A stretch of DNA of 64,000 nucleotides from Candidatus Omnitrophota bacterium (GCA_015231405.1 JADGBR010000001.1:155964-219963); one strand, 5' to 3'; counted from the stretch's first letter, positions 4,778 to 62,490 are shown. Numbers and translations: made by a program. Notes: generated from the letters alone by a model not told the origin.

Positions 4778-4803
4778 GACTAACGTAAATATGTTCGGGA
4801 ATA

Positions 4804-4957
4804 CAGAATCCAGGATCCAGAATACAGAATAGGGAATACGGGATACGGAATTATCGGGTCTATATGAAGTAGTCGAATAAGGGAATATCTTTTAGATATG
4901 TTCCACCTATTCTGGATCCTGACTTCTGGATTCTTCATTCTATATCCTGTTTTTTTA
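4804..4957 (+). terminator. palindromic low-complexity repeat element (CAGAATA/GGATCCAGAATA arms) ending in a T7 run; probable pgi terminator and REP-like element
   Basis: Left arm 4804-4832 (acagaatccaggatccagaatacagaatag). Right arm 4908-4945 (ctattctggatcctgacttctggattcttcattctat). The arms are inverse-complementary with one 5-nt indel. tttttttt at 4950-4957. A second copy of the motif family sits at 12539-12622. Confidence 0.45.
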
Positions 4958-12530: not shown

Positions 12531-12538
12531 GAGAATAG

Positions 12539-12644
12539 AGAAGTCAGAATTCAGAATCCAGAAGCCAGAATAATGTTTTCTGGAATTGTCTCTTCTGAAT
12601 TCTGGATACTGACTTCTGGCTTCAAGGTTTTCAGTTATTTTTTT
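12539..12644 (+). terminator. second copy of the CAGAAT/CCAGAAG palindromic repeat family followed by a T-run; probable terminator
   Basis: agaagtcagaattcagaatccagaagccagaa (12539-12570) and ttctggaattgtctcttctgaattctggatactgacttctggcttc (12577-12622). The right arm shares TTCTGGATnCTGACTTCTGGnTTC with 4910-4937. ttttttt at 12637-12644. Confidence 0.45.
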
Positions 12645-12954: not shown

Positions 12955-12955
12955 A

Positions 12956-35800: not shown

Positions 35801-36277
35801 GGGAGGATACACTGTTCGATCAGCGCAAAAATACTTAAGGAGCTCGAAGAGCTGAACGCAGGTGAACAATTCATTGTAGGAACTGTAAAAGACTTTTTGA
35901 CGGGACATGTGATGCTCGACATTATAACCGATACCGCTACGACGGAGAAGGAAGAGACCGTATACCCGCTTTCCTTCGCCAAGTGCAAGGCATTAGGCCT
36001 CGCCAGGTTCAACATGGCGCATGTGGGGGCGATGGTGGATAAGAACGACGACCTGTATAAAAGTTCATTAAGGCTTGTAGGCCTCGCGATCGCGTATTTG
36101 ACCAATAACACGGACAACGCGGATAATATCGTCAAATCGCTGGAGGAGGCTTCGGGAAAAGATAAAGAATTCTATAAAAGGGTTTTCGAGCTTGTGCTGC
36201 CCGAAGTGGCTAAAATAAACATAAACGAGATTAACAATATATTTCAGGCCGAAGCGGAGGTATTCGCGTCTCTCTAA
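23843..36277 (+). CDS. giant midasin-like AAA+ protein (4144 aa): signal/anchor peptide, TraB/GumN-like domain, six tandem AAA_5 modules (alternating degenerate/intact), helical HExxH region, acidic/Pro-rich disordered linker, VWA-like segment, ~700 aa unknown
   Basis: Single uninterrupted ORF. Signal-like N-terminus MKKFNTLILLISFTINQMVIPVKA. TraB/GumN motifs (IINITDAHCN about aa 57; MVTGGFHKDNLKGLFEKAGFNYIEV about aa 452). Walker A boxes GPTGSGKT (nt 27578), GPPGGGKT (nt 29168), GETGTAKT (nt 31175), each with an hhhhDE Walker B and a TNP/MNP sensor-1 (AAA_5 hallmark). Three interleaved AAA-like modules lacking Walker A (about nt 26700, 28500, 30120). HEIRH at nt 32078. K/E- then P/G/D/E-rich low-complexity at 32660-33070. 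FIVTDGSIEE (VWA TDG motif) at nt 33907. Confidence 0.85.
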   Translation: MKKFNTLILLISFTINQMVIPVKADVAKLIDPGTFYIPGKIGEIMTLVKGNSGKTIINITDAHCNYSAQDNICKILQYLTSNETPEIVFLEGGSGKYDFSVFDKINDTEIKERIVEILLKEGRLSGAEKYGIGSNNSIRLEGLEEKDLYDKNLGYYRGSLTMKDTVQPYLDKLRGILAKIKKNLYSEEMIKIDDMFDRYESGELNIKDLIVLISGLLAQKSADLLAYKNIVGLAGIVNDEKRIDFERAEKEMENVMDLLTKTLPGNERTKLLEQLTGFKDGDIDKEMFYGYLFKQLRLSSADMSNYENLRKYSEYISGYENIDKGELAREIRRARTDLFEKSFTGDDQKELFALVNYLVAVDKLINAKLVKEEFNDYIKMASRVDLDGVKAFIAKNYPIDGDHLNMSEAQNEYPMIVDLMEKFYKCSFERDVVFLGKIDKYMTVNKMKSAVMVTGGFHKDNLKGLFEKAGFNYIEVMPVIKKTDVANNYFKLLSGERSDLEGFIDTAVSLLPGNSFLALRSVFSEMGISDIKAGNETVLKIAMLEKLLNGEEFTIRTKQGWWIVISPEGVKSVNANVFKSDTGTIGGQKITAEVFRPEARFDANVSEADIVLVDGDELNHIQQELWIDGLGKEMGYKALRDVIDTEPFIDKLYEFGLEEQHVEYLKLNYINTDKLRVWNDKDMRMPVDGHPGAEGVVYLTSHLFNANDTRGAVLAFLHELGGAYKNGELKRTHADNRQLDDAYASGDRDLIKKKAIEIVEFASGGTGMARGEKRDYADKVDMEAAKPVTIEDFETLTSDHQKENVIRELKTIHAEIMSMAEEYKERTGDPKYLTITMREQKRFLKTFESVYYKRIKETGDESLSYAHALNTAKQGYYDIFPESFVREEIGDVNVHDAPLPEELDALHSEVYRKLSRAIDTDFPSLFNCPVDTLGELDDALDIYVRNHSGIGKVEKVVCTPDTDSTQLIGCLLPVDPKDRKGAEKVRFEMGVIYRMVEHARDDPEHTHILRLDQLEALSPKVWVILNQFLLTDEMTVPEADPTKGKAVRKLKRPKNLKIITSINKGLDDSAFYDRFLRKTIDSPSDEVLGAYIMSHYGLPEWAAKDMVSLKNNNEAVNNGQLFIILDYIKGRLSESESKGEKALKDIIDQEVGLYLGNLKPLKPGDGYETKVEFKDDKLMFDGVELAINDGLRAKIKQAVKSQDDIEAIKKAIKETVSISMTRDVARALSAIARNYRYGNKVIQLEGPTGSGKTFLAESLAKMLNIPFYGEPFHASSKQTKLLGSFVPDPTGEFYLDTDTQFLRHIQDGGVIALSELNACEKDGYARFGWLMVPFASGEDTLELNQYPLPGEGGEMFRSVKRHKDSMIIIDTNPSDAYKSRAALPPMLNAYTPKVWVEGKYTMEELKEISADFIESKEVSGDEKGFFTDVLSELHFKVQEELERTDPKLSRGREHIVTMRELTRTSKMIRSENKNKDKGQNYYDAAMLYYGSAFKNEADRELVKGYIKEILSGQGIAVSCLKERDDNYFLRTSILNTKNSTMLSLPAMDNPFDVIQEALGEEKNVEVEKYNANYFTDDFGLLGGYVPNEGSKYNEEMAFRMVDGIILKNIKKALKEKDKTFILAFENFHYLRPKMAVALNSILQDRVYYSIAKEGGVKTKERIEIPDNLKFVSTASNEVEFQMSLAEQSRWVRIFGSGDKSRAPPEERQAKVYADADELRKAYKKDRSQLDPNIHPEPVTDGKGLLVPTKEMMEAESRMVDAMDDDKVILLEGPPGGGKTEYALDIANRLGLKSYLYSAHANSHLRDLIGSYVQDKDGKYVLTAREKDGHFMAPFLECLKNGGVFIIDEGAIGVNAQAIISWLTGIARGDKEIAINEHLGMDEPLRIKRHENFHLVITTNPVEETPDRMKIPIEVLERSERIWVTDDICRKSYDSITEFFYDLYAGNDPKMAEHKKNYTVAALSSLHIKMKEILSAQGFVNDPDRHLMTLRDLKALIAAFSYYVKAGMDSKPAFNAAFELVYLAQFSDLVKIQILKKLEEVLDGNAKDRIDFNAGRFEDKPMDMAGMIKRGPMAQSEQKVIKQIKDLIGINKNPLLLLEPGSREKEIISAFSEKEGYELFHCDSHPEMTSLDLIGGTFPFFEEKGMEAERLSELPGFIGRHLVRKEDIDKPGEKKLLVIHNIDALHEKVRTVLNNFLLKGSIDIQDQMGRTRTMYLPKNVRIMAACSEKTGEEISGAFWNRFQKIDVPPISYMENGNSELLELLLYDSGLSEYGAMGEMVSRYIQYLHSFTDRLDAESEWPSGKKYAFTVKEALLLGKYVKIAIDDAKKDPEEIDVAKAKEMVIREAYNLYGGKIKEHQSDLDFFEQNVLKIIFDHRLVKNLSGTVVKEKGVVTELAGVKLPHGTKGKRLEDIDPEYRLILVKEIVNTMAGIVRAWRSGKVVSMTGETGTAKTTMGVFLSQLMFGEEAGEDSYYIFSTHGASKARDLEYQLRMTEEGKYRLEIQEFIKKIEEGNKVIIIDEANMRPEMLWAINAIARGEKEITLQIPGEKQYKVRVGDNVNIIMTMNPTSYKDRKDVPGILKENVVNLWSSLNYSEAEMDMILKGMMGAMERKLLGKKGKVSQEAETSEEDKAIPAKDGVFEDFRGSIDLEKFLERVYEFGHDEALEKTPQEVISNLEKELLERDDVKKRMARIETTVKNLTRGISVEYSTYYPWGQSNEAGKLLIPLDQLVNPLLTDDMIISFIMHEIRHWRYSPTPKDIMGDIAEDLVKTIPKAREILSSSDFNYYWNVLEDHRINAVRTRFDGENSYIDTFIGTNFTDPEQSLKIQEKLETFIDGGEYIRAFWEYILYYGYAREHTPGFPRYPKALRDAINKITDGGDNSVLYRAVLSGDVHPDYDALVIDKNAPENRAKMIKAAINSLKVIIGEIHPVFLEVVEYERKEREKKHKDKDKGEKTKKEAKAPKEAKEAKQRPIEDLSEGPLTQAPLSPPPGAMPNNDKGVETPVDMPKPWDERPQTDIPLTGTSGSGASDEKGRGEQGESAPGDDMSGEEYPSGMDKGAGPVMPGSDAFSGKTINYDPVQWKEMTKEELERLIEKSKRIRGATELPEESSNDFLAEIRRIVENPPETPHEFEGYRKFYREFVEQVKYSHNMAITDELFEYYGHLIKNAKTLRDVIDRLPEEIKKLMDETRELFEEIEEDIEQENSETGMQIDIEAKWSRKKEQFIENIIKDRKRSDIAVGVTLVPDMWASGAYEEILAVFLQTFNKLERRKVEYSVSFSDVSYSLREGIAFNEKVKKMEQLEQRYREMLLYLALTNHGNNQQSSKVGIGRFTPLKLVLSIMQKYSGVKKTNKIEFIVTDGSIEETSCYMFFPSETGKGYLGSDDIFLRPSGVIGPYYDMPGCTKDLVMEATEALNYLANYEHNLRIWKACIQRAKDGGMTDAELKRKGLTEDEFPGLHVLKNDPDPRSMGARLAKEYGFRFDQWGYNWPSVTEKVSMSDRIKAIIRASDLVTRLRMKAGIILPASEEYLERARQAPGGDKAKFGMPVPTRKLADALSDAKSKGIDIIGVGTKKEYKGVQLFDSWIYIDGYSPHVVTFLMLELSNYKKKHPGDFPKGDLFENLPGLREKADKMQKETASAAKMPGMKAPSENSIEMNLLDLENNSAPVQHEEILIKRKIELGGDGRELKVAFRVLDENVADKVKSVAMSPSKAFFDIGGDTFFAVRREMPDGSINIFLTKKSMARLIVDEKALMALAMHEVYDTGEKEGPGSHKWAWDKVKKENPEGMSSLLRFMIDNMDEAQVKALASEYEEDLSGRKASGEWGPFEEDIHSYCLGRLDAIRTSTETDKNSILKYELSGTSEGRLEKIRCESGIAPETNSTEKARSEMLDVYGKLLSGVYKNTHNKEKCYDFILSAVPTAKDDEGQPVDYAESVLSGLMGKLRSQGDAAVAKAQIGNITSRYTMGALAAKSMVESIVELSKSVPDGRIHCSISAKILKELEELNAGEQFIVGTVKDFLTGHVMLDIITDTATTEKEETVYPLSFAKCKALGLARFNMAHVGAMVDKNDDLYKSSLRLVGLAIAYLTNNTDNADNIVKSLEEASGKDKEFYKRVFELVLPEVAKININEINNIFQAEAEVFASL

Positions 36278-37809: not shown

Positions 37810-37935
37810 TATAGCCTCCTTATTTTTAGCTTTAAGCTTTCAGCCTTAAGTCTTCAGCTTGAATGTTTGTTAAGAAGCTGACAGCTGATAGCTGATAGCC
37901 CTATATTAGAGACACAGTTTTCAGCGAAAATGTTT

Positions 37936-38060
37936 CAAAAAAAATGAAAAAATCTTTAATATTGAAGAAATGAGGCCGGTGTGCGAAAATTACGAACGAG
38001 TTGGAATTTATTGTTTTCAAGCTTAATTTGGGTAAAAGGGTCTTGTATGTCAAAAGGGAA
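37936..38060 (+). repeat. degenerate duplicate of the upstream/5' segment of gene 40925 (copy A)
   Basis: 37936-37998 is about 90% identical to 40852-40913. A weaker, indel-containing match continues into 41040 (ttggatctatgttttcatattgg versus ttggaatttattgttttcaagcttaatttgg; tgtggatatcaaaaagga versus tgtatgtcaaaaggga). Confidence 0.6.
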
Positions 38061-40851: not shown

Positions 40852-40913
40852 TAAATATTCCCAAAAAAATGAAAGATCTTTCATATTGAAGAAATGAATC
40901 CGGTGTGCGAAAA
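40852..40913 (+). repeat. conserved ~62-bp upstream element (copy B), 12 nt before the ATG of gene 40925
   Basis: ccaaaaaaatgaaagatctttcatattgaagaaatgaatccggtgtgcgaaaattacgaacga; see copy A. Confidence 0.6.
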
Positions 40914-40924
40914 TTACGAACGAT

Positions 40925-41326
40925 ATGATACCGTTAAAGGAAAAAAATATTTGGATCTATGTTTTCATATTGGTCTGGGCCTCAATATGGGGGCGTAACC
41001 TTTTTGTGGATATCAAAAAGGATTGGCCGGATACGAAAAAACTTTTCGGACGTCCAGTCGAGGACAAGTGGGAATATGTTTTCGGCGGTGACTTATATCT
41101 CTTCCTGCAAAACGTAAAAAAGAACGTTCCAGAGGATTCATCCTTCACTCTGATAGACGGGCTCGAACATTTTAAACGGGTAAGGGCCGAGTATTACCTT
41201 TATCCGAGAACGGTAAGTCCCGTTGCCGGATATATATGCGTTTACGGCAGGGAATATACAGTAGAAGAGGGGTGGAAAACTCTTTATAACCGCGACCGAA
41301 AGATGATATTAAGGAAAATGACGTGA
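40925..41326 (+). CDS. hypothetical membrane-anchored protein
   Basis: N-terminal TM IWIYVFILVWASIWG. Stop overlaps the next start. Confidence 0.4.
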   Translation: MIPLKEKNIWIYVFILVWASIWGRNLFVDIKKDWPDTKKLFGRPVEDKWEYVFGGDLYLFLQNVKKNVPEDSSFTLIDGLEHFKRVRAEYYLYPRTVSPVAGYICVYGREYTVEEGWKTLYNRDRKMILRKMT

Positions 41327-43084: not shown

Positions 43085-43345
43085 TCAATTTTCGGACCCT
43101 TTGAATTCTTCCAGTACAAAAGACTGAAGCTCCTTACGCGCTTCCTGTGACAATGGGTGAAAGGTATCGTACCATTTACCGTCTTTGCCTTTTGCCTGAG
43201 GCATGGAGAGGAATAAGCCATCTTTCCCTTCAACTATCCTGAGACCCTTTACGACGTATTCGTCCATGAGCTTGATGTCGCAAAAAGCCTTGGTGCTAGC
43301 GTTGCCGTTCAATTTGTGCATCCTTTCGACCGAAACATTTTTCAT
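43085..43345 (-). CDS. spoVG: septation protein SpoVG
   Basis: Strong collinear similarity to SpoVG (KAFCDIKLMDEYVVKGLRIVEGKDGLFLSMPQ...WYDTFHPLSQEARKELQSFVLEEF). AGGAGGAGA SD upstream on the minus strand. Confidence 0.85.
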   Translation of the reverse strand: MKNVSVERMHKLNGNASTKAFCDIKLMDEYVVKGLRIVEGKDGLFLSMPQAKGKDGKWYDTFHPLSQEARKELQSFVLEEFKGSEN

Positions 43346-43467
43346 TTCTCCTCCTTTTTTTTGAAATATTTTTCAAAACATCCTACACGTATATAGACAC
43401 AGGTAACGGGAAAAATATTTCAAAAAAAGAAAAAATAATTAAAAAAGAGATAAAAAAGCGAGATGTG

Positions 43468-44181: not shown

Positions 44182-44354
44182 GCCAGCATTATAGCAGAAG
44201 ATTTAAACAATAAAGTTAATTATTTATTGGTTATTAATTCCGTAGGTGTGAGGCCGTAAATACGGTTTTTAAAACGCCACTTTTATACTATAATACCATT
44301 CGACCTTCGACCATCCGCCTTCAACCTTTAAACGATCGAAGGGCAGTTGATTTT

Positions 44355-46097
44355 ATGACAAATAAACAGATATCTGATATATTCGTACAGATCGCCGATA
44401 TTCTCGAGATCAAGGGGGAGAATATATTCAGGGTTCGCGCTTATCGGCAGGCGGCGGCCAATATCCTTACTTATGCGAGGCAGGCTTCGGATATTTGCAG
44501 GGAAGATCCTGAACTTTTGCTTTTGGTCCCAGGGATAGGGAAGGACCTCAAAGAAAAAATAGTTGAGATGGTGACGACCGGCAAACTTAAAAAACTGGAC
44601 GAGCTTTCAAAGGAATTCTCACCCGGGTTCCTGGAACTTCTGAACCTGTCGGGGCTGGGGCCGAAGACGCTCAAGAAGCTGAAAGACGAACTTGGTATAG
44701 CTGACATAAATGATCTTAAAAAAGCCTGCGAGGAGGGGAAGATAGCGTCTCTGGCGGGCATGGGTGAGAAGACGGAGGAAAAGCTCCTCGAGGCTATCGA
44801 ATATCACAAAAAGACGGAAGGGAGGATGCTTTTTCAGGAGGCGTATTCTCTGTCAGGAGATGTTTTGGCTTATCTGAAAAGATCGGGATATTTCAAAAAG
44901 CTTGAGGCCGCTGGAAGTCTCCGTAGAGGCAAGGAAACCGTGGGTGATATAGATATCCTGGCCGTCTCATCGGAGAGCCAGAAAGCCATGCAATTTTTTA
45001 CCCTGTATCCGGGGATCAGGAATGTTATCTCCAAAGGGAAGAAGAAGACCAGTATAGCTCTGGAGAACGGCGTACAGATCGACCTCCGGATGATCGAAGA
45101 TAAATGTTTCGGGTCGGCACTGGTCTATTTTACGGGATCCCAGGCGCATAATATCAAACTCCGGAAAATAGCGAAGAAGGACGGCAAAAAGGTCAGCGAA
45201 TACGGAGTATTCAGGATAAACCCGGGCTCCGGGAAAGGAACGGCGATCGCTTACCGTACCGAAGAGGATGTTTATAAAAGCCTGGGTATGGCATGGATCC
45301 CGCCGGAGCTGCGTGAGGACTCCGGGGAGGTCGAGACGGCGCTGGAAGGGAAGCTGCCCGGTTCTCTTATAAAATTGACCGACATCAAAGGGGATCTCCA
45401 TGTTCACACCAACGAGACAGACGGACGGAATACCATCGAAGAAATGGCCTTAGCCGCGAAGAATAAGGGATATGAGTATATCGCTATAACCGATCATTCA
45501 AAACTTGTGGCGGTCGCTAAAGGGATGGATGAAACGCGTTTATTAAAACATATTGACCGGATAAGGGACGCGGATAATAGGATAAAAGGAATAAAGATAC
45601 TTGTTGGGGTTGAAGTTGATATCCTTAAGAACGGAGAACTTGATTTTAGCGATAGTTTCCTCAAGGAACTGGATATCGTTATCGCGGCCGTTCATTCCAA
45701 TTTCTCAATGGACATAAATACCCAGACGGACAGGATCCTTAGAGCCCTCGATAATAAATTTGTCAATATACTCGCCCATCCTTCGGGTCGGCTCATAACG
45801 AAGAGGAGCCCGCTGGAACTGGATATGGATACGGTTTTCAGGAGGGCTAAAGAGAACGGCGTTATTCTCGAGGTTAACACGCACGGGGAGCGGGTAGACC
45901 TTTCCGATGTCAACTCGAGGCGGGCTGCTGGGATCGGCGTGAAACTTGCTATAAATACCGATTCACACGGGGTTGAACAACTGGACCAGATGATGTTCGG
46001 CGTGATATCCGCCCGAAGGGGCTGGATCAAGAGGGAAGATGTCGTCAATACTCTCCCATTGCCTCGGATGCTCGCCATTTTAAGGAAAAAGGGTTAA
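44355..46097 (+). CDS. polX: DNA polymerase X family protein with C-terminal PHP domain
   Basis: Pol-beta-like N-terminus (ISDIFVQIADILEIKGENIFRVRAYRQAA, HhH motifs, GSLRRGKETVGDIDIL nucleotidyltransferase). PHP domain (GDLHVHTNETDG ... HS). Confidence 0.85.
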   Translation: MTNKQISDIFVQIADILEIKGENIFRVRAYRQAAANILTYARQASDICREDPELLLLVPGIGKDLKEKIVEMVTTGKLKKLDELSKEFSPGFLELLNLSGLGPKTLKKLKDELGIADINDLKKACEEGKIASLAGMGEKTEEKLLEAIEYHKKTEGRMLFQEAYSLSGDVLAYLKRSGYFKKLEAAGSLRRGKETVGDIDILAVSSESQKAMQFFTLYPGIRNVISKGKKKTSIALENGVQIDLRMIEDKCFGSALVYFTGSQAHNIKLRKIAKKDGKKVSEYGVFRINPGSGKGTAIAYRTEEDVYKSLGMAWIPPELREDSGEVETALEGKLPGSLIKLTDIKGDLHVHTNETDGRNTIEEMALAAKNKGYEYIAITDHSKLVAVAKGMDETRLLKHIDRIRDADNRIKGIKILVGVEVDILKNGELDFSDSFLKELDIVIAAVHSNFSMDINTQTDRILRALDNKFVNILAHPSGRLITKRSPLELDMDTVFRRAKENGVILEVNTHGERVDLSDVNSRRAAGIGVKLAINTDSHGVEQLDQMMFGVISARRGWIKREDVVNTLPLPRMLAILRKKG

Positions 46098-46109
46098 AAA
46101 GGGTCATAG

Positions 46110-48092
46110 ATGGTCAATATTGCGAAACGAATAGCGGAATTGCGGAAAGAGATAAAAAAACACAACGATCTATATTACGCGAAAGGAAAACCGGTCGTTT
46201 CAGATAGCGAATATGACCTGATGGTGCGGGAGCTGAGAGAATTGGAGAAGGCACATCCCGAGTTCCTGACAGCTGATTCTCCCACACAAAAAGTCGGGGC
46301 ACCTCTACGCTCCACCTTTGCCAAGATAGAACACGCATCTCCTATGCTCAGCCTCGAAAGCATCTATACCGATGAGGAATTACTTAAGTTCGATAAGACC
46401 TCAAGTGAAGACCTTGAGGTTCAACATATAGAGTACGTCGCCGAACCAAAACTTGACGGTTTCAGCGTGGAACTTGTCTACGAGAAAGGAACATTCGTCC
46501 GCGGATCGACCAGGGGCGACGGCTATATGGGCGAGGATGTCACGAATAACCTTAAAGCGATAAAGAACGTTCCGGCGGAATTAAAAGGGGCTAAACCACC
46601 GGCGTTATTGGCTGTCCGGGGAGAGGTCCTCATGCATATCGGCGATTTTCAGGAGCTGAATAAGGTCCAGTCGGCTGCCGGACGGGATGTATTCGCTAAC
46701 CCGCGTAACGCGGCGGCCGGAGCCGTACGGAACCTCGATCCGGGTGTGACACAGTCCCGGAACCTGGATATCTATTGTTACGGCCTTCTGGCGTATAGCG
46801 GCAAGATGCCTTCCACTCATCTTGAGACGATAGAGCTTCTGGAAAGATCCGGACTCAAAACTGCCCCCGGCGCAAGGCTTTGCCGTACAGCGGACGAAGC
46901 GATCAAATATCACCATGATCTCGAGAAAAAAAGGGACGATCTTGACTATGAACTGGACGGCGTAGTGATCAAAATTAACAGTCTCGAATACCAGGACAGG
47001 CTCGGGATGAGGACCACTAATCCGCGTTGGGCTGTCGCTTACAAATTTGAGGCCAGGAAAGAAGTGACGAGGGTAGAAGATATAGTGGTCCAGGTAGGAA
47101 GGACGGGGGTCCTTACTCCAGTGGCGCTACTTCAACCGGTCGAGGTGGGGGGCGTAACCATATCCAGGGCGACGCTGCACAATATGGATGAGATCGAGCG
47201 GCTTGGGGTCCAGGTGGGTGACCATGTCAAGGTCGAGAGGGCCGGCGACGTTATACCTAAAGTTGTGGAAGTTATCCGCGATAAACGCTCCGGATCGGAA
47301 CGGTCTTTCAGCATGCCGTTAAAATGTCCCAGCTGCGGGACGCAGGTAGAGAAAGAGGACGTCCATTACAGGTGCCCGGCCGGACTAGGTTGCCCGGCGC
47401 AGGTGAAAGAATCAATGACCCATTACGCTGCCAAGGACGCCGTGGACATCGACGGGTTTTCCGATAGGACCGTCGAGCAGCTTTTCGCGGAAGGCCTTAT
47501 ATCGGGCATATCGGATATATACGGGCTGAAAAGGGATGACCTCTTAAAGCTTGACGGGTGGAAAGATAAAAAAACGGATAATATCCTTTCGGCAATAGAG
47601 AGGTCAAGGGAAGTAACGCTCGACCGTTTTATTTTCGGGCTTGGGATAAGAAAGGTGGGAAAACATATAGCGGCGATACTAATGAAAAAATTCGGTACTC
47701 TGGATAAATTGAGGAAAGCCTCCGTCGATGATCTTTTGGGAGTGAACGAGGTCGGGCCGGAGATAGCCGGAAGCATATCTGATTTTTTCAGGAATCCCGT
47801 GAATGCGACGGAGATAGATAAACTTATGTCGATGGGCGTTCGCGTTATCGAGAAGGAGATAAAGGGCGAACTTCTCGGCAAGAAGATAGTATTCACCGGT
47901 TCTTTAAATAAATTATCACGATCAGAAGCCAAGAAACTGGTAGAGGATAACGGCGGGGAGCCTATTTCCACCGTTACTTCAGATACTGACTTCGTGGTTG
48001 CCGGCGATAAAGCCGGATCCAAGCTGGAAAAGGCCCGAAAAGCAGGGATACAGGTCATATCAGAGGAAGAATTCTTAAGGTTGCTGGCGTAG
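46110..48092 (+). CDS. ligA: NAD-dependent DNA ligase LigA
   Basis: KxDG adenylation motif (EPKLDGFSV). OB fold. Zn finger (CPSCGTQVEKEDVHYRCPAGLGCPAQ). HhH. C-terminal BRCT (KIVFTGSL). Confidence 0.95.
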   Translation: MVNIAKRIAELRKEIKKHNDLYYAKGKPVVSDSEYDLMVRELRELEKAHPEFLTADSPTQKVGAPLRSTFAKIEHASPMLSLESIYTDEELLKFDKTSSEDLEVQHIEYVAEPKLDGFSVELVYEKGTFVRGSTRGDGYMGEDVTNNLKAIKNVPAELKGAKPPALLAVRGEVLMHIGDFQELNKVQSAAGRDVFANPRNAAAGAVRNLDPGVTQSRNLDIYCYGLLAYSGKMPSTHLETIELLERSGLKTAPGARLCRTADEAIKYHHDLEKKRDDLDYELDGVVIKINSLEYQDRLGMRTTNPRWAVAYKFEARKEVTRVEDIVVQVGRTGVLTPVALLQPVEVGGVTISRATLHNMDEIERLGVQVGDHVKVERAGDVIPKVVEVIRDKRSGSERSFSMPLKCPSCGTQVEKEDVHYRCPAGLGCPAQVKESMTHYAAKDAVDIDGFSDRTVEQLFAEGLISGISDIYGLKRDDLLKLDGWKDKKTDNILSAIERSREVTLDRFIFGLGIRKVGKHIAAILMKKFGTLDKLRKASVDDLLGVNEVGPEIAGSISDFFRNPVNATEIDKLMSMGVRVIEKEIKGELLGKKIVFTGSLNKLSRSEAKKLVEDNGGEPISTVTSDTDFVVAGDKAGSKLEKARKAGIQVISEEEFLRLLA

Positions 48093-52894: not shown

Positions 52895-53767
52895 ATGGAA
52901 AGAAAGATATATTTGAACGGCGTATTTGTGGAAAAGAAAGACGCTAAGATATCGGTTTTTGATCATGGGCTTCTCTATGGAGACGGTGTTTTCGAGGGAA
53001 TACGGTCTTATTCGAGGAAAGTGTTCAGACTTCATAAGCATATGGAAAGACTCTATGCGGGAGCGGCCGCGATAAAGCTTAACGTCAATATGTCGATTGA
53101 TGAGTTTGAGTCTAAGATAATCGAGACATTACGGATCAATGGGCTGGATGACGCGTATATACGTGTTGTCGTAACACGCGGCGTGGGTGACCTGGGATTG
53201 GATCCCCGAAAATGTTCTTTGCCTACGATTTTTATTATTGCCGATAAGATCGTACTGTACCCTGAGGAGTTTTATGAAAAAGGGTTACCGATAATCATCG
53301 CAAAAACACGCAGGATCTCTCCTCAATCCATAAGCCCTGCGATAAAATCGCTTAATTATTTAAACAACATCCTCGGTAAGATAGAGGCTACTGCCGCAGG
53401 TTGTAATGAAGCGTTAATGTTAACGATAGACGGGTATGTCGCGGAATGCACTGGTGATAACATTTTTCTTATAAAAAAAGGTAAATTGATAACCCCGCCT
53501 TCGGAGATCGGTGCCCTGAACGGGATAACGCAGCAAGCCGTTATTGACATCGCCTTGAAAAGAGGAATGAAATTCGGGTATGAAATGTTGAAGCCAAACG
53601 ATATTTTTGATGCCGATGAGTGTTTTTTGACCGGGACCGCAGCCGAGGTCATACCGGTCAACAAAGTCGACGGTAAGGTGATAGGATCAGGCGTTCCAGG
53701 GTCCGTTACTAAGGACATAATACTGGCGTTCAGGGAGCTGACGCGGGTTGATGGGACAGCGTATTGA
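52895..53767 (+). CDS. class IV aminotransferase (branched-chain amino acid or D-amino acid aminotransferase)
   Basis: Fold-type IV PLP motifs (DHGLLYGDGVFEGIRSY, EATAAGCNEALMLT). 290 aa. Confidence 0.7.
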   Translation: MERKIYLNGVFVEKKDAKISVFDHGLLYGDGVFEGIRSYSRKVFRLHKHMERLYAGAAAIKLNVNMSIDEFESKIIETLRINGLDDAYIRVVVTRGVGDLGLDPRKCSLPTIFIIADKIVLYPEEFYEKGLPIIIAKTRRISPQSISPAIKSLNYLNNILGKIEATAAGCNEALMLTIDGYVAECTGDNIFLIKKGKLITPPSEIGALNGITQQAVIDIALKRGMKFGYEMLKPNDIFDADECFLTGTAAEVIPVNKVDGKVIGSGVPGSVTKDIILAFRELTRVDGTAY

Positions 53768-53774
53768 GTTGGGT

Positions 53775-53856
53775 TATAGTTGCTATGTTTAGGTGTTAGG
53801 TGTTGTGTTCAGATAATATTAACATAACCTAACATCTAAACATAGCAACTATAACC
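53775..53856 (+). repeat. near-perfect 30-bp-arm inverted repeat (very stable hairpin) between the aminotransferase gene and mcsA
   Basis: gttatagttgctatgtttaggtgttaggtg (53775-53804) versus cataacctaacatctaaacatagcaactataac (53824-53856). The reverse complement differs at 2 positions. 19-nt AT-rich loop containing ataatat. Confidence 0.6.
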
Positions 53857-53886
53857 TATATATTCCGAACAAGATAGGAGACGAAC

Positions 53887-54399
53887 ATGATGAATTGCGA
53901 CGTCTGCAAGATCCGTGAAGCGACTGTGCATCTGACCGAAGTTATCAATAGCAAGGTCACGAAGCTCCACCTTTGCGAGCATTGCGCAAAAGATAAAAGC
54001 GAGGAGATGCAGTCCCATTTCGGCCTGACGGACCTTATCTCCGGCCTCATGGATATCGGGCCGCAGGTCGCTTCCGACGACCTTGGCGAACAGACGACAT
54101 TGAAATGCCAGGCTTGCGGTATGACTTACGGAGATTTCCAGAATACGAGCAAACTGGGATGCGGTAACTGTTATGAGACCTTCAAGGACAGGCTCAGCGA
54201 TCTTCTCACAAAGATACACGGTTCCGACAGGCATATCGGCAAAATGCCTTTCAAAGGTAAAACGGTAGTCGAGGAGCAGGAAAAGCTAAAGCAGCTTAAA
54301 TCTGAACTGAATGACCTTATCAGGGGCGAGCAGTTCGAAAAGGCGGCCATAACCAGGGACAGGATAAAGGACCTTGAGGACAAACTATTGAAGAAGTGA
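53887..54399 (+). CDS. mcsA: McsA (protein-arginine kinase activator; zinc fingers plus UVR motif)
   Basis: Two C-x2-C...C-x2-C pairs (CDVCK...CEHCAKD; CQACG...CGNCYETF). C-terminal UVR-like helix (LNDLIRGEQFEKAAITRDRIKDLE). Directly upstream of mcsB-clpC. Confidence 0.7.
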   Translation: MMNCDVCKIREATVHLTEVINSKVTKLHLCEHCAKDKSEEMQSHFGLTDLISGLMDIGPQVASDDLGEQTTLKCQACGMTYGDFQNTSKLGCGNCYETFKDRLSDLLTKIHGSDRHIGKMPFKGKTVVEEQEKLKQLKSELNDLIRGEQFEKAAITRDRIKDLEDKLLKK

Positions 54400-55451
54400 G
54401 GGCCATGGAGATCAAGGATTTTCTGAAACGTAAAAGCGAGTGGGTGAAGGGCGAGGGGCCTCGGTCGGACATTGTCATGTCCACGAGGATACGGATAGCC
54501 AGGAATGTGAACGGACATCCTTTCTACAACTGGGCTGACAAGACAAAACGAAAAGAAGTCTTCGAGAAAATGATGGCCGCTATGAAAGGAGCTGTCACTT
54601 TCAAGGACGCTCAGCTCATCAAGATGAAGGATACGACGCCCATTGAACGGACTTTTCTCGTTGAGAGGCATTTAATAAGCAATGAGCATACGCATGACGT
54701 CGATTCGAAAGGCCTGGTGATAGCTAACGAGGAAACCCTGAGCATAATGCTGAACGAGGAGGACCATCTGAGGCTGCAGGTCATAAAGTCGGGTTTCAAT
54801 CTGATGGAAGCGTGGAAGATCATCGATGAGATCGACACGAATCTTGGTACGCATCTGCCTTACGCGTATTCATCAAAGTTCGGCTATCTGACGGCTTGTC
54901 CGACAAATACCGGCACGGGGCTACGGAGTTCGGTAATGCTCCACATGCCGGCGCTGGAGTTGACAAATCAGATGGAAAGGGTTTACGAGGCCATATCGAA
55001 GCTTGGCCTTACGATAAGGGGTTTTTACGGGGAAGGATCCGAGGCTTCGGGGAATTTCTTCCAGATATCCAACCAGGTGTCGCTGGGTCACTCCGAAATG
55101 GATATACTCGATAATTTCGGCAGGGTGGTCGATAAGATCATCGAGCGGGAGAAGGATACCCGGGATTACCTCATGGAAAATAAAAAAAGGGAAGTTACGG
55201 ACAATATATTCAGATCGTTCGGCACGCTTAAAAGCGCAAGGATAATAACTTCCAGCGAAACAATAAGGCTTTTATCTGCTGTCAGGCTTGGGGTGGACCT
55301 TGGCCTCATTAAAGAGGTCACGGTAACGGCGCTTAACGAGATACTCCTTTTAATGCAGCCGGGACATCTCCAGGTACTGAACAACGAAGGCCTAGGGCAG
55401 TCAGAGAGGGATATCAGGCGCGCCGATATGATAAGGGATAAATTGGTGTAG
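54396..55451 (+). CDS. mcsB: protein arginine kinase McsB (ATP:guanido phosphotransferase)
   Basis: Phosphagen-kinase active-site Cys motif CPTNTGTGLR. EEDHLRLQ. Confidence 0.85.
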   Translation: MRAMEIKDFLKRKSEWVKGEGPRSDIVMSTRIRIARNVNGHPFYNWADKTKRKEVFEKMMAAMKGAVTFKDAQLIKMKDTTPIERTFLVERHLISNEHTHDVDSKGLVIANEETLSIMLNEEDHLRLQVIKSGFNLMEAWKIIDEIDTNLGTHLPYAYSSKFGYLTACPTNTGTGLRSSVMLHMPALELTNQMERVYEAISKLGLTIRGFYGEGSEASGNFFQISNQVSLGHSEMDILDNFGRVVDKIIEREKDTRDYLMENKKREVTDNIFRSFGTLKSARIITSSETIRLLSAVRLGVDLGLIKEVTVTALNEILLLMQPGHLQVLNNEGLGQSERDIRRADMIRDKLV

Positions 55452-55516
55452 CTTCAGGTTCCAGGTTAAAGGTGTTTGTTCATAGTGTGCTTGTGATCAT
55501 CAAACAGGAGGGATAG

Positions 55517-57961
55517 ATGGCTTCTTTCAGTAAATTCACGGAAAGGGCGAGAAAGGTTATTTTGATAGCTAAGGACGAGGCGAAAAAGCTCAACCACGAT
55601 TATATCGGAACAGAGCATATACTTTTGGGCCTCGTTAAGGAAGGAGAGGGGGTCGCCGCTGCTGTTCTCAACAGTCTCGGGCTTGAGCCCGATAATATCC
55701 GGGAGGAAGTCGAAAAGCTCGTGAAGCAGGGGCCTCATCCGATAATGACAGGGGATATCCCGTTCACTCCGAGAGCTAAAAAGGTCATAGAGCTGGCCAT
55801 GGACGAGGCCAGGAACCTCGGGCACAATTACATAGGGACCGAGCATCTCTTACTTGGGCTTATAAGGGAGGGCGAGGGCATCGCCGCCCAGGTCCTTCTG
55901 AACCTTGGGCTTGACGTAAGGAGCGTAAGGGACGAGGTGCTCAATCTCCTTGGTTCGTCCGTTCCGGGATTTTCACCTAACCAGGACGCTAAACGCAAAA
56001 AGAAGACCAAGACACCCGCCCTTGATTCGTTCGGCAGGGATCTCACAGCCATGGCAAAGGAAGAAAAGCTTGATCCGGTCATAGGCCGGGAGAACGAGAT
56101 ACAGCGTGTGATACAGATACTCGGGAGGCGTAAAAAGAACAACCCCGTTCTTATCGGTGAGGCTGGCGTCGGTAAAACCGCAATAGTCGAGGGCCTGGCG
56201 CAGAAGATAATTACCGGCGATGTTCCGGATATCCTCAGGAACAAAAGGCTCCTGATCCTTGACCTGGCTTCCATGATAGCCGGGACAAAGTACCGCGGCC
56301 AGTTCGAGGAAAGGATAAAGGCCGTGATGAAGGAGATAAAGGATTCTTCCGAGGTGATAGTTTTTATTGACGAGATACACACTCTCGTCGGCGCCGGAGG
56401 GGCGGAAGGTGCTATAGACGCTTCGAATATACTTAAACCGTCGCTTCAGCGGGGTGAGATACAGTGCATAGGTGCTACGACGTTCGACGAATATAGGAAG
56501 AACATAGAAAAAGATCCGGCCCTCGAAAGAAGGTTCCAACCCGTGATCGTGGAGGCTCCGTCGGTGGAAGATACTATACAGATACTAATGGGCCTCAGGG
56601 ATAACTATGAGGCCCATCATAAAGTGAAATTTACCGATAAGGCCCTGGAAGCGGCGGCGAAACTTTCGGACAGATATATAACGGCCCGTTTCCAACCCGA
56701 TAAATCCATCGACCTTATCGACGAGGCCGGTTCTAAGGCGCGGCTTTCCACTATGACCATGCCGCCGAATCTTCAGGACGAAGAGAGGAAAATAGAAGAG
56801 TACAAAAGGGAAAAGGAAGAGGCCGTGAAACAGCAGGATTTTGAGAAGGCCGCCCGTTTCAGGGACTTCGAGAGAAAAGCGAAAGAAGAGCTTGAGCAGA
56901 AGCGCCAGGAGTGGAAAAAAGACCAGACTCAGGGCGAGATCCTTGTGGACGAGGAGAATATCGCGACCATAGTTTCTGAATGGACGGGTATCCCTCTTGT
57001 GAAAGTCGAGGAAAAAGAATCGGCGAAATATCTTAAACTGGAAGAGAACCTTAGGGAGAGGGTAGTCGGACAGACGGAGCCGATATCCGCGATAGCCCAT
57101 GCGGTGAGGCGTTCGAGGGCCGGGATAAAGGACCCGAACCGTCCGATAGGGACTTTCATATTCCTGGGACCGACCGGCGTAGGTAAGACGCTTCTGGCGA
57201 AAAAGCTGGCTGAGGTAATATTCGGCGACGAGGACGCTATCATACAGGTCGACATGTCCGAGTATATGGAAAAGTTCAATGTGTCAAAACTTGTTGGTTC
57301 GCCCCCTGGATATGTCGGGTATGAGGAAGGCGGACAGCTTACCGAAAAGGTCAGGCGGAAGCCCTACGCTGTGGTCTTGCTTGATGAAATAGAGAAAGCT
57401 CATCCGGACGTATTTAACATACTCCTACAGCTTCTTGACGAAGGCAGGCTCACGGATTCTTTCGGTCGTAAGGTCAGTTTTAAGCACACTATCCTTATCA
57501 TGACATCTAATATCGGTGCCGATCTAATTAAGAAAGCCGGAGCGATGGGTTTTTCGACCGATAAAAAAGAAGAAGCTAATTACGACACTATGAAGGGGAA
57601 ACTTCTTAACGAGATAAAACAGCATTTCAAACCGGAGTTCCTTAACAGGGTGGATGACGTGATAGTGTTCAGGAGCCTGAACGAGGACGATCTTAAGCAG
57701 ATAGTCGGAATAGAGGTAAGGGAGGTTACTGCTCGGCTGAAAGAGCAGAATATCATTATCGAGCTCGACGCTTCGGCGAAAGATTTCATCATTGAGAAAG
57801 GTTTTGACAGGACTTTCGGGGCGAGGCCGCTAAAAAGAGCCATACAGAGATACCTTGAGAACCCGCTCGCCGAGGAGATATTGGCGGGCGATTTCGGTAA
57901 CGGAGACGTTATCAAGGTCACTTGTTCCAAGAACAAAGATTGCCTGATCTTCAAAAAATAA
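55517..57961 (+). CDS. clpC: ATP-dependent Clp protease ATP-binding subunit ClpC
   Basis: Two Clp_N repeats. NBD1 GEAGVGKT. Short UVR-type middle domain (QQDFEKAARFRDFERK). NBD2 GPTGVGKT. ClpP-binding loop region. 814 aa. Confidence 0.95.
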   Translation: MASFSKFTERARKVILIAKDEAKKLNHDYIGTEHILLGLVKEGEGVAAAVLNSLGLEPDNIREEVEKLVKQGPHPIMTGDIPFTPRAKKVIELAMDEARNLGHNYIGTEHLLLGLIREGEGIAAQVLLNLGLDVRSVRDEVLNLLGSSVPGFSPNQDAKRKKKTKTPALDSFGRDLTAMAKEEKLDPVIGRENEIQRVIQILGRRKKNNPVLIGEAGVGKTAIVEGLAQKIITGDVPDILRNKRLLILDLASMIAGTKYRGQFEERIKAVMKEIKDSSEVIVFIDEIHTLVGAGGAEGAIDASNILKPSLQRGEIQCIGATTFDEYRKNIEKDPALERRFQPVIVEAPSVEDTIQILMGLRDNYEAHHKVKFTDKALEAAAKLSDRYITARFQPDKSIDLIDEAGSKARLSTMTMPPNLQDEERKIEEYKREKEEAVKQQDFEKAARFRDFERKAKEELEQKRQEWKKDQTQGEILVDEENIATIVSEWTGIPLVKVEEKESAKYLKLEENLRERVVGQTEPISAIAHAVRRSRAGIKDPNRPIGTFIFLGPTGVGKTLLAKKLAEVIFGDEDAIIQVDMSEYMEKFNVSKLVGSPPGYVGYEEGGQLTEKVRRKPYAVVLLDEIEKAHPDVFNILLQLLDEGRLTDSFGRKVSFKHTILIMTSNIGADLIKKAGAMGFSTDKKEEANYDTMKGKLLNEIKQHFKPEFLNRVDDVIVFRSLNEDDLKQIVGIEVREVTARLKEQNIIIELDASAKDFIIEKGFDRTFGARPLKRAIQRYLENPLAEEILAGDFGNGDVIKVTCSKNKDCLIFKK

Positions 57962-60493: not shown

Positions 60494-61921
60494 GTGCTTA
60501 CTATAAGATATATAAGAGCGTTTTTCTTCATGTTATCGATAGTGTGCGGGTACTATGTCGGTACCTATTTCCAGCATTATAGCGATATCGCTTCTCTCTT
60601 CGGGCTGGGGATCGGCGCTATATTCGCCGTGAGCCTTATGTTCGTCGAGGCAAAAATGCGGAACGTATCGCTCCGGAACCTTTCGGCAGGGGTTTTCGGC
60701 CTTATTTTCGGGTTTTTCATAGCATGGATGCTGACCTTGATCGTCAAGATCGTGCCCATGAACGATCTATATTACAACATCGCTCAGATAGTCTTCACGC
60801 TGGTTTTCTGCTATCTCGGGATGGTCATAGCGATCAAGGGGAAGGATGAGTTCAACCTGATAATCCCTTATGTCCGTTTTTCACCTCAGGACCAGGGATC
60901 ACAGATCTTTCTCATCGATACCAGCGTCATTATAGACGGGCGTATCAACGGGATTTGCGAATCCGGTTTCTTGAGCGGCAAACTGCTGGTCCCTCGTTTT
61001 GTTCTTCAGGAACTCCAGAATATAGCAGATCATACCGACGAGACCAAGAGGATAAGGGGACGTCGTGGGCTTGATGTGCTGAACCAGATGAGGAAGATAA
61101 CGGGTGTGGAAGTGATAGTGCATGACGAGAATTTTCCTGATACTCCGGAAGTTGACGCTAAGCTGCTCAAACTGGCAAGGGTCATAGGTTGTAAAGTGCT
61201 CACGAATGATTACAACCTCAACAAGATAGCCAAGCTCGAAGGCGTGACAGTGCTTAACATTAACGAGCTGGCGAACGCTATGCGCATCGTTATCTCGCCC
61301 GGAGACAAAATGCTCGCCGCGATACGTAAAGAAGGAAAGGAGAGGAACCAGGGCGTTGCGTTCCTTGACGACGGAACAATGATAGTGGTGGACAACGCCA
61401 GAAAATTCATAGGTAAGGACGTTCCAGTTAACGTAACAAGCGTCCTCCAGACATCGGCGGGACGGATGATATTCGCGGAATTGTCCGACAGGAACGGTAG
61501 GACCGAACAGCCGGTCAAAGGTCCCGAGGAGCAAAGGCGAGAGTCAACCCAGCCGCGTGAGAGGAGGTTCGAGGAAAAGCGACCAAAAGAAGAAGGCCAA
61601 AGGCCCAGGGAAGAAGGCCAAAGGCCCAGGGAAGAAGGCCAAAGGCCGAGGACGGACGACGGACAGAAAAGGTCAGAAGAACACAGACAGAGGTCTGAGG
61701 AGAACAGGCAGAGGTCTGAGGAGAACAGGCGCCGCCACGAAGAGCATAGGCGCAGGCAGGAAGAGCATCGTAGACGAATAGAGGAACAGAGAATGAAAGC
61801 CCAGGAGCATCAACCGAAGACCGATGAAGTGCCGAGTGATGTTCTACCGGGAGAAATTGTCGAGGGCCCGGACGTAAAGAGTGAGAACCTGCGGGGTGAT
61901 GAGGCCAAGAACGAAGGGTAA
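60494..61921 (+). CDS. YacL-like membrane-anchored PIN plus TRAM domain protein with repetitive R/E-rich C-terminal tail
   Basis: GTG start after AAGGAG. About 4 N-terminal TM helices. PIN core (IFLIDTSVIIDGRI). TRAM-like beta segment (KDVPVNVTSVLQTSAGRMIFAEL). C-terminal EEGQRPR x3 and QRSEENR x2 heptad repeats. Confidence 0.6.
   Translation: MLTIRYIRAFFFMLSIVCGYYVGTYFQHYSDIASLFGLGIGAIFAVSLMFVEAKMRNVSLRNLSAGVFGLIFGFFIAWMLTLIVKIVPMNDLYYNIAQIVFTLVFCYLGMVIAIKGKDEFNLIIPYVRFSPQDQGSQIFLIDTSVIIDGRINGICESGFLSGKLLVPRFVLQELQNIADHTDETKRIRGRRGLDVLNQMRKITGVEVIVHDENFPDTPEVDAKLLKLARVIGCKVLTNDYNLNKIAKLEGVTVLNINELANAMRIVISPGDKMLAAIRKEGKERNQGVAFLDDGTMIVVDNARKFIGKDVPVNVTSVLQTSAGRMIFAELSDRNGRTEQPVKGPEEQRRESTQPRERRFEEKRPKEEGQRPREEGQRPREEGQRPRTDDGQKRSEEHRQRSEENRQRSEENRRRHEEHRRRQEEHRRRIEEQRMKAQEHQPKTDEVPSDVLPGEIVEGPDVKSENLRGDEAKNEG
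61589..61729 (+). repeat. in-frame 21-bp tandem repeats (3 x gaagaaggccaaaggcccagg at 61589-61651; 2 x cagaggtctgaggagaacagg at 61688-61729) in the yacL-like 3' end
   Basis: Direct reading of the sequence. Units are perfect except one substitution in copy 3 of the first block. Confidence 0.85.
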
Positions 61922-61977
61922 CTTGTGTGGTTCGTGATTCGTGGTTCGGTTGAATAGGCCAAGAGGGGAAAAAGAGG

Positions 61978-62490
61978 ATGGACATACGAGTAGGAATGGG
62001 GTACGACATTCACCGGCTCGTCGAAGGGCGAAAGTTTATCCTTGGCGGTGTTGATATCCCTTATCATATGGGTCTTCTCGGCCATTCGGATGCGGATGTT
62101 CTACTGCACGCGGTAATAGACGCTATACTTGGAGCCATGGGTGAACCGGATATCGGCACGAATTTCCCGGATAAAGATCCCGCGTATAAAGGGATATCAA
62201 GCAAAGTCCTATTGGATGAGGTAAAAAAGATAATGCACGCCAAGGGTTTTAAAGTTAATAATCTGGATTGTATCATCGTGACCGAAGAGCCCAAGATAGG
62301 CCCGTACAGGGGAGAGATAATCGGGACAATAAGTTCTATCCTGGAGATCCCGTCATCTTCGGTCAACGTCAAATCAAAAACTAACGAGGAGCTTGGCCCG
62401 GTCGGTCAAAAAGAAGCGGTCGTTTCTTACGCGGTCGTTACGATCGTAAAAAATACTATGACCCGTCCCAGATCCGGAGGTAAGAAATGA
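61978..62490 (+). CDS. ispF: 2-C-methyl-D-erythritol 2,4-cyclodiphosphate synthase
   Basis: IRVGMGYDIHRL ... GHSDADVLLHAVIDA ... GEPDIG signature motifs. Confidence 0.9.
   Translation: MDIRVGMGYDIHRLVEGRKFILGGVDIPYHMGLLGHSDADVLLHAVIDAILGAMGEPDIGTNFPDKDPAYKGISSKVLLDEVKKIMHAKGFKVNNLDCIIVTEEPKIGPYRGEIIGTISSILEIPSSSVNVKSKTNEELGPVGQKEAVVSYAVVTIVKNTMTRPRSGGKK

Follow-up and report, generated by a model that had tools for sequence, protein, structure and literature searches.

A long palindrome between ilvE and a ctsR-less mcsA-mcsB-clpC cluster, and the heptamer-repeat hairpins of Omnitrophota intergenic DNA

A Candidatus Omnitrophota bacterium (GCA_015231405.1) carries a cluster of mcsA, mcsB and clpC genes – the protein-arginine kinase activator, the kinase and a Clp ATPase – that is preceded by ilvE, a gene for a branched-chain aminotransferase, and that lacks ctsR. 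We have analysed this cluster within a 64,000-nucleotide stretch of DNA (JADGBR010000001.1:155964-219963), which is referred to throughout as the window and whose first letter is position 1. The 119-nt gap between ilvE and mcsA is occupied by a long palindrome, the top-scoring short-range inverted repeat of the 64-kb window. A first-pass annotation of the sequence had drawn attention to this palindrome and offered several readings of it: a terminator for the upstream gene, an mRNA processing or stability hairpin, or the operator of a regulator that stands in for CtsR. Here, we describe the palindrome and compare the locus with other Omnitrophota loci around mcsA. The palindrome is found in none of these relatives, and it shares its intergenic site and part of a seven-nucleotide periodicity with a class of hairpins present in gaps across the phylum. 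We lean towards reading it as a generic stem-loop of that class.

The palindrome and its gene context

The genes around the palindrome are all on the plus strand, in the order lysS, lolC, lolD, ilvE, mcsA, mcsB, clpC, mlaE, mlaF, mlaD, a PIN-domain gene and ispF. Matches to Pfam and NCBIfam profiles (Table 1) confirm that an mcsA-mcsB-clpC cluster without ctsR lies downstream of an ilvE-like gene, as first annotated. There is no match to the CtsR family among the 40 window proteins scanned against Pfam, no ctsR gene next to mcsA in 80 further loci, and no regulator gene was found in the window cluster. The annotated lack of CtsR heptads and of CIRCE (controlling inverted repeat of chaperone expression) also holds: CtsR-box-like matches in the window are at chance level (8 versus 6.8 expected) with none near mcsA, and there are 0 CIRCE matches at three or fewer mismatches. 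The best CtsR-like double match (46092-46118) was dropped; it sits between a PolX-type polymerase gene and ligA. Absence of ctsR is the rule across the phylum and not peculiar to this locus, and McsAB orthologues in Chlamydia provide a precedent for a diderm McsAB without an adjacent ctsR (PMC10128030).

The near-perfect palindrome of the first-pass annotation, described as having two mismatches in 30 bp, is present with slightly wider coordinates (53772-53856). Its arms are 35 nt each, lie 15 nt apart and are 91% complementary, with mismatches at 2 positions in the outer 31 nt. Folded as sense RNA, it is predicted to form a stem of 32 consecutive pairs, counting G:U, in which 53770-53801 pairs with 53827-53858, followed inward by a 2x2 internal loop and three further pairs. 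The fold energy of -55.5 kcal/mol compares with -23.7 +/- 3.3 for shuffled sequences (z = -9.66; 0 of 200 shuffles match it), and the corresponding energies are -43.4 kcal/mol for the antisense RNA and -30.1 kcal/mol (z = -11.5) for single-stranded DNA. The stem begins 2-4 nt past the ilvE stop codon (TGA) and ends 28-30 nt ahead of the mcsA ATG, in a region where 100-nt segments have a G+C content of 33-36%. The arm sequence occurs at a single site in the window (the left arm and its reverse complement at 53826-53856), and the other gaps of the cluster that were folded – lolD-ilvE, mcsB-clpC, mlaD-PIN and PIN-ispF – gave no significant fold.

Table 1. Positions of the palindrome, neighbouring genes, candidate signals and heptamer arrays in the window
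Feature	Position	Strand	Basis and remarks
Inverted heptamer arrays, GAATACA x 7.6 then ATTCTGG...	4799..4949	+	Gap between pgi and a transporter gene
Inverted heptamer-array hairpin, AGAAGTC/AGAATTC...	12532..12617	+	Starts just past the stop of a DnaJ-domain gene; lag-7 identity 0.84
Weaker heptamer arrays, TTTAAGC... then AGCTGAT...	37824..37899	+	Divergent gap
Direct heptamer array, TTCGACC x 4.3	44299..44328	+	Divergent gap
ilvE, branched-chain / class IV aminotransferase	52895..53767	+	Pfam Aminotran_4 9e-58; NCBIfam NF006185 430 bits (cut-off 363); TIGR01122 304 (cut-off 245); stop codon adjoins the hairpin
Palindrome left arm, G/T-rich	53772..53806	+	Inverted-repeat search and fold; predicted RNA stem reaches out to 53770
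Left-arm heptamer core, TTAGGTG x 2.3 perfect copies	53789..53804	+	Tandem Repeats Finder: period 7, 100% matches, score 32
Loop, 15 nt (25 nt without weak inner pairs)	53807..53821	+	Repeat search and fold; TTCAGATAATATTA at 53808-53821
Palindrome right arm, A/C-rich	53822..53856	+	Inverted-repeat search and fold; predicted RNA stem reaches out to 53858
Candidate weak sigma-70-like site, TAAACA-16-TATATT, overlapping the right arm	53837..53864	+	9/12 consensus positions; three such sites per 1 kb vs 1.8 expected (shuffles), not significant
mcsA Shine-Dalgarno AGGAG	53877..53881	+	Sequence reading and fold; 18 nt 3' of the stem, free of pairing in the stem
mcsA, protein-arginine kinase activator (McsA-like)	53887..54399	+	NCBIfam NF053706 full-length, 1.7e-48, 164.8 bits, under the 210-bit cut-off; homologues named protein arginine kinase activator
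mcsB, protein arginine kinase	54396..55451	+	NCBIfam NF002194 436 bits (cut-off 385); Pfam ATP-gua_Ptrans; 4-nt overlap with mcsA
Direct heptamer array, TTCAGGT TCCAGGT TAAAGGT, then GTTTGTTCA (mcsB-clpC gap)	55454..55482	+	NNNAGGT family and following motif common with the inner left arm; no significant fold
clpC-type Clp ATPase	55517..57961	+	Pfam Clp_N, two AAA modules, middle-domain UVR motif, ClpB_D2-small
Direct heptamer array, GTGGTTC x 3.1	61927..61948	+	Between the PIN-domain gene and ispF

The ilvE-mcsA gap across the Omnitrophota

The comparative set consists of 80 Omnitrophota loci around mcsA, which together with the window give 81 sequences with 249 intergenic segments in 661 kb. 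In 74 of the 80 loci the gene directly 5' of mcsA, on the same strand, is ilvE, usually with lysS-lolC-lolD ahead, so that an ilvE-mcsA arrangement without ctsR is the norm for the phylum. The spacing between the two genes in these 74 loci ranges from an 11-nt overlap (seven loci) up to 258 nt, and is 30 nt or less in 34 of them; these gaps are therefore too short for a promoter or operator. The longer gaps contain fillers that are unrelated to one another and to the window palindrome, and include lineage-specific hairpins. The mcsB-clpC gap is equally variable in the phylum, from 1 to 314 nt, and again contains heptamer arrays.

The first-pass annotation had looked to conservation of the palindrome upstream of mcsA and clpC in related genomes. 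None of the relatives carries the sequence: no similar segment is present among the 249 intergenic segments, and the 26-nt arm pattern has no exact match in JGI metagenome contigs. As a test of conservation this is indirect, the nearest McsA beyond the window's own record (P0001, 100%) being 69% identical in a collection of 5.8 billion proteins. Hairpins are also not a particular property of this gap, as those scoring at least 12 occur in 9 of 35 gaps (of at least 30 nt) upstream of mcsA and in 36 of 214 other gaps, an enrichment that is not significant (p = 0.24).

Loci L018 and L019 illustrate how the gap changes. They are 95.4% identical over 8.4 kb, yet differ by a 49-nt indel between ilvE and mcsA (L018 3965-4000 versus L019 3916-4000) that comprises a 36-nt perfect GTAG-type palindrome, GCCAAGTAGGGCACCCTTAAGGGTGCCCTACTTGGC, and a second copy of a 14-nt target, GGRGYTMCACAAAG. 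The L019 indel looks like the insertion of an element resembling repetitive extragenic palindromes (REPs), and hairpins of the ilvE-mcsA gap are gained and lost over short evolutionary times. Palindromes of this REP-like kind, GC-rich with a GTAG head (GTAGGGG...TTTAAA...CCCCTAC), are seen in the window at 12955-13076, in a convergent gap 3' of an ArsR-type regulator gene, and at L036 1992, L039 1964, L053 658 and 4514, L072 2895 and L078 2293.

An insertion with a duplicated target in the same gap, together with the recurrence of GTAG-headed palindromes across loci, raises the question of whether the window palindrome is itself a mobile miniature element, either a REP or a miniature inverted-repeat transposable element (MITE), since its architecture is that of terminal inverted repeats around a short core. 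This is the least probable of the explanations considered here. Although inverted arms are present, the flanks have no target-site duplication, there is no GTAG head, and no further copy exists in the window, the loci or the JGI metagenome contigs.

The promoter that serves these genes is recognizable in one part of the phylum. A subclade of 14-15 loci (L046, L049, L053-L055, L057-L060, L065, L067-L069, L071 and L072) has a highly conserved sigma-70-type promoter, TTGACATAATATT-NN-TTATTATATATACT, located 38-92 nt upstream of ilvE (e.g. L057 3100-3131). It is near-invariant over about 30 nt, with a -35 TTGACA and a -10 TATACT separated by 17 nt of AT-rich, partly palindromic spacer (ATAATA...TATTAT). 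An identity as tRNA was rejected for this conserved element, no tRNAs being found, and it reads as a promoter. The ilvE ATG often follows at a distance of just 7-10 nt, pointing to a transcript that is leaderless or has a very short leader, and the conserved spacer hints at a possible operator of the subclade operon. Because the promoter stands ahead of ilvE and is often paired with the 11-nt overlap of ilvE and mcsA, we take ilvE-mcsA-mcsB-clpC to be one operon in the subclade. The clade of the window lacks this element, and the full promoter was not found in the window, where the -10 half is unmatched; the palindrome loop, TTCAGATAATATTA, is the sole window match (two or fewer mismatches) to its first 14 nt, TTGACATAATATTA, which cover the -35 and part of the spacer, and about 0.52 such half-matches are expected per window by chance.

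A further motif connects the two gaps of the mcs operon. AGGTGTT(N0-1)TGTTCA occurs at just two sites in the window, one in the inner left arm and loop of the palindrome (53798-53811) and one in the mcsB-clpC gap (55470-55482), on the same strand and each following NNNAGGT heptamers; these gaps also contain three of the window's four AGGT-N3-AGGT matches, versus 1.1 expected. The motif statistic is post hoc, because the pattern was defined with both sites already seen, and a common origin of neighbouring arrays suffices to explain the pair. Neighbouring gaps may share a heptamer family without any regulatory role, as do the AGCTGTA-type arrays in two gaps of L023.

These are the observations that would speak for an operator or cruciform switch, in which an unknown stress regulator takes CtsR's place by binding the palindrome, or the motif present both there and in the mcsB-clpC gap; AGGTGTTGTGTTCA is named beside the palindrome arm as a candidate target under this proposal. 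The half-match of the loop to a promoter conserved in a distant subclade and the failure to find ctsR or CIRCE point the same way. We nevertheless consider an operator highly improbable, and the annotated suggestion of one is unsupported: the sequence is conserved in no relative examined, nearly half of the relatives leave no room for it, hairpins are not significantly enriched upstream of mcsA, a hairpin can be present in one locus and absent from a 95.4% identical one (L018 and L019), no regulator gene is nearby, and the 35-nt arms far exceed any operator half-site.

Heptamer-repeat hairpins in intergenic DNA

Many of the gap fillers are hairpins with a tandem heptamer array in one arm and an inverted copy in the other, built from units such as TAGCGTA (L053), GAAGATA (L036), AGCTGTA (L023), GACCACA (L066) and GCTGAAA (L068). 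Other fillers are direct heptamer arrays without a fold (L010 and L047), GTAG-headed REP-like palindromes and GTCATCC-type palindromes, and further palindromes, unique or REP-like, accompany them in Omnitrophota gaps. The seven-nucleotide period is a general property of this DNA. Intergenic identity at lags of 7, 14 and 21 nt is 0.315, 0.297 and 0.292 in the loci, over a background of about 0.265, and 0.305, 0.298 and 0.290 in the window, whereas coding DNA of both has period 3 alone and no rise at period 7. Period 7 accounts for 94 of the 143 intergenic tandem arrays and period 14 for another 5, and these 99 are spread over 33 of the 81 sequences; the window has six period-7 sites, every one of them in a gap. 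The unit varies from gap to gap with no genome-wide consensus, and in the window only the two mcs operon gaps share one (NNNAGGT). Across the class the arms are about 93% complementary (985 Watson-Crick pairs at 1056 positions).

We place the window palindrome in this class as a partly degenerate member, because its left arm contains TTAGGTG in 2.3 copies and has a lag-7 identity of 0.49, against about 0.3 at other lags (p = 0.03 by mononucleotide shuffling). In L042, two arrays with about 14 copies of TAACTGA each lie in opposite orientations (658-753 and 1128-1225); this heptamer is abundant in marine Beggiatoaceae, cyanobacteria and some Bacteroidetes (PMC4679880).

The hairpins are tied to the 3' ends of genes. 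In co-directional gaps they begin at a median of 12 nt past the upstream stop codon, and within 10 nt of it in 26 of 55 cases; ends that close to the next start are seen in only 6 of the 55. Hairpins are present in 41 of 214 co-directional and 4 of 14 convergent gaps, and in none of 21 divergent gaps (0/21 versus 45/228, Fisher p = 0.018). In L053 and L068 the ilvE-mcsA, mcsA-mcsB and mcsB-clpC gaps all contain hairpins, which stop only about 20-25 nt short of the following start codon; mcsA and mcsB, which overlap by 4 nt in the window, are separated there by hairpin-bearing gaps of 49 nt (L053 4514-4562) and 200 nt (L068 2536-2736). These lie within the operon and must therefore be compatible with read-through; genes that need co-expression evidently tolerate hairpins of this kind between them.

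The placement in L053 and L068 also bears on whether the window hairpin ends the lysS-lolCD-ilvE transcript, with mcsA-mcsB-clpC expressed from a promoter of its own. Such a promoter would have its -35 (TAAACA) in the right arm and its -10 (TATATT) just 3' of the stem, leaving a leader of about 15 nt. The candidate site at 53837-53864 has 9 of 12 consensus positions, the hairpin adjoins the ilvE stop codon, and leaders that are short or missing are in use in the phylum, as seen from the subclade promoters. This arrangement seems unlikely all the same, as the promoter match is at chance level, the hairpin is without terminator features, in many relatives ilvE and mcsA lie too close for a promoter to fit between them, and the comparable hairpins of L053 and L068 are inside the operon. 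For the hairpins as a class, T is not enriched past the stem (27% versus a background of 25%), and classical termination is unlikely for that reason; the stems and loops of the class also far exceed intrinsic terminators in length. The annotated terminator or processing hairpin thus survives in part: a role at the transcript end is plausible from the position of the stem just past the stop codon and from the association of the class with 3' ends, whereas the features of a classical intrinsic terminator are not found.

The main rival of a functional stem-loop is that the palindrome is a neutral by-product, in which arrays arise by replication slippage and inverted copies by template switching, and are kept wherever the non-coding DNA from a stop codon to the following ribosome-binding site tolerates insertion. 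Slippage has been invoked for heptamer repeats elsewhere (PMC4679880; PMC4692102), the fillers are lineage-specific and turn over fast, the same arrays occur in direct, fold-free form (L010, L047 and the window mcsB-clpC gap), the hairpins have no U-tract and no G:U bias on the sense strand, and their absence from divergent gaps may just reflect the constraint on promoter regions. This is possible but doubtful, since arm complementarity as high as that of the class should decay without selection or a very recent origin, and since the clustering right past stop codons suggests a 3'-end role.

We therefore give slightly better than even weight to the palindrome being a generic, lineage-specific and non-conserved intercistronic or 3'-end stem-loop of the heptamer-repeat-derived Omnitrophota class, and not a CtsR-replacing operator. 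In the lysS-lolC-lolD-ilvE-mcsA-mcsB-clpC string, ilvE and mcsA would ancestrally, or at least commonly, have been near-contiguous and co-transcribed. Transcription from an upstream promoter would then generate the stem of about 32 bp, 2-4 nt past the ilvE stop, where it would block 3'-exonucleases at the ilvE 3' end, could provide an RNase III site, and might act as a leaky terminator without a U-tract. The outcome would be that the level of ilvE mRNA is uncoupled from that of mcsAB-clpC; the hairpin would do so without sequence-specific operator action, and the mcsA ribosome-binding site would be left free.

Several points weigh against this stem-loop reading. Transcription across the palindrome and its effect on RNA are steps that we infer. 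The sense RNA is about 10 kcal/mol stabler than the antisense RNA, a difference that hangs on one or two positions, and the mismatches of the class have no strand bias (17 compatible with G:U pairing in the sense RNA and 16 in the antisense), so that selection on the sense RNA is not demonstrated; the lack of T enrichment past the hairpins counts similarly. The heptamer periodicity of the palindrome arm is partial, with a lag-7 excess of 0.14 compared with at least 0.3 in clear heptamer hairpins, and a purely generic stem-loop leaves the AGGTGTT(N)TGTTCA motif in two gaps of one operon unexplained. The genes of the comparative loci were delimited by a greedy open reading frame (ORF) heuristic and not by a gene finder, and conservation of the palindrome was tested at McsA identities of 69% or less. 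Beside these stands an observation on base composition: in hairpins scoring at least 11 in co-directional gaps, read in the sense direction, G outnumbers C in the 5' arm (270 to 189) and C outnumbers G in the 3' arm (267 to 194), an asymmetry that may simply mirror the general G-over-C skew of the coding strand.

A more ambitious proposal takes the shared motif at face value. Throughout the phylum, inverted heptamer arrays could mark transcript ends or provide insulation independently of any U-tract, the 7-nt periodicity being recognized by a dedicated factor, with the NNNAGGT plus GTT(G)TGTTCA motif of the mcsA palindrome and the mcsB-clpC array tuning the ctsR-less McsAB-ClpC module. We think this very unlikely; if true, the elements would be a genuine regulatory device and not filler.

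The result is deflationary, in that the palindrome provides no evidence for a new heat-shock regulator. The period-7 signature and the fast-evolving, U-tract-less hairpins at stop codons do bear on the prediction of terminators and operons in these uncultured, ultra-small Omnitrophota. A testable lead on the expression of this proteolysis system in a diderm phylum comes from the conserved association of the protein-arginine-kinase/ClpC module with a branched-chain aminotransferase gene; in one subclade the association includes an overlap of reading frames and a highly conserved promoter in common.

Other features of the window were noted. The PIN-domain gene and ispF follow clpC and the mla genes (60494-62490), an order reminiscent of yacL-ispD-ispF near clpC in the Bacillus operon; towards its 3' end (61589-61768) the PIN gene contains in-frame 21-nt repeats encoding a charged tail (PREEGQR x 3, RQRSEEN x 2). 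A direct repeat of about 75 nt, 90% identical, is located upstream of the gene for a 907-aa TPR protein (37930-38005) and upstream of the next gene (40855-40925; 133 aa, no Pfam match), and may be a duplicated promoter or leader. An AT-rich inverted repeat at 43338-43446 (37 nt, 78% complementary) lies beside a period-11/20 A-rich tandem repeat, 3' of a minus-strand polysaccharide deacetylase gene. A single ORF of 4144 aa spans 23843-36277 on the plus strand, a giant gene of the kind reported for Omnitrophota (bioRxiv 10.1101/2023.11.21.568195).

Comparison with known repeats and regulatory elements

The palindrome resembles several known elements in part. Its position ahead of mcsA-mcsB-clpC is that of the CtsR operator in the class III operons of Firmicutes, and CtsR boxes are also heptad repeats. 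The CtsR box is, however, a direct repeat, RGTCAAA-NAN-RGTCAAA (RGTCAAANANRGTCAAA), and there is none near the window mcsA. Nor does the palindrome qualify as CIRCE, the HrcA operator, which is an inverted repeat of the form TTAGCACTC-N9-GAGTGCTAA. An RNA thermometer was ruled out, since the AGGAG and ATG of mcsA are outside the stem and a stem of -55 kcal/mol is too stable to melt; the sole Rfam thermometer match scored 10.9 bits against a threshold of 290. No Rfam cis-regulatory RNA reached its gathering score in the window, and a search by E-value returned generic miRNA-precursor-like hairpins far under the cut-offs.

Like an intrinsic terminator, the window hairpin is directly 3' of a stop codon. 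It differs in having a stem of about 32 bp (versus 5-14 bp), a loop of 15-25 nt (versus 3-8 nt) and a surrounding region of low G+C content, and there is no U-run 3' of the stem, the downstream sequence being TATATATT and the tail TATATATTCC; a terminator scan did not call it. The predicted 32-bp stem is long enough to be an RNase III site, for which the length criterion is at least about 20 bp of near-perfect double-stranded RNA.

Over-represented heptamer repeats have been described in intergenic DNA of several other bacteria, including the short tandemly repeated repetitive (STRR) sequences of the cyanobacteria Nostoc and Calothrix, GGGAATC in Xanthomonas and TAACTGA in Beggiatoaceae and cyanobacteria, with their function unresolved (PMC4692102; PMC4679880; bioRxiv 10.1101/2022.06.06.494920) and their abundance ascribed to polymerase slippage (PMC4679880; PMC4692102). 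We found no earlier report of heptamer arrays in Omnitrophota in a limited literature search. As with the known heptamer simple sequence repeats, the 7-nt tandem units of Omnitrophota are confined to intergenic DNA, and their length and sequence at one gene pair differ widely between related genomes; as with those of Xanthomonas, they occur in inverted arrangements with stem-loop potential. Unlike the STRR, GGGAATC and TAACTGA families, they have no shared consensus heptamer, nearly each gap having its own unit. The Beggiatoaceae arrays are mostly direct and lie just upstream of start codons, whereas many of those in Omnitrophota have an inverted copy and start at the upstream stop. The window palindrome fits this repeat class by its TTAGGTG core and its intergenic site, a membership that is weak to partial.

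REPs and the bacterial interspersed mosaic elements (BIMEs) that they form part of are intercistronic palindromes that stabilise upstream mRNA, e.g. the REP between malE and malF of Escherichia coli. REPs are multi-copy families with a conserved GTAG head and GC-rich stems, mobilised by REP-associated tyrosine transposases (RAYTs), and in these respects the window element differs, being single-copy in the window, AT-rich and without a GTAG head. It is like a REP or BIME in that its palindrome is imperfect, lies between co-directional genes just past a stop codon and has no U-tract, an arrangement that is compatible with read-through and with differential mRNA stability.

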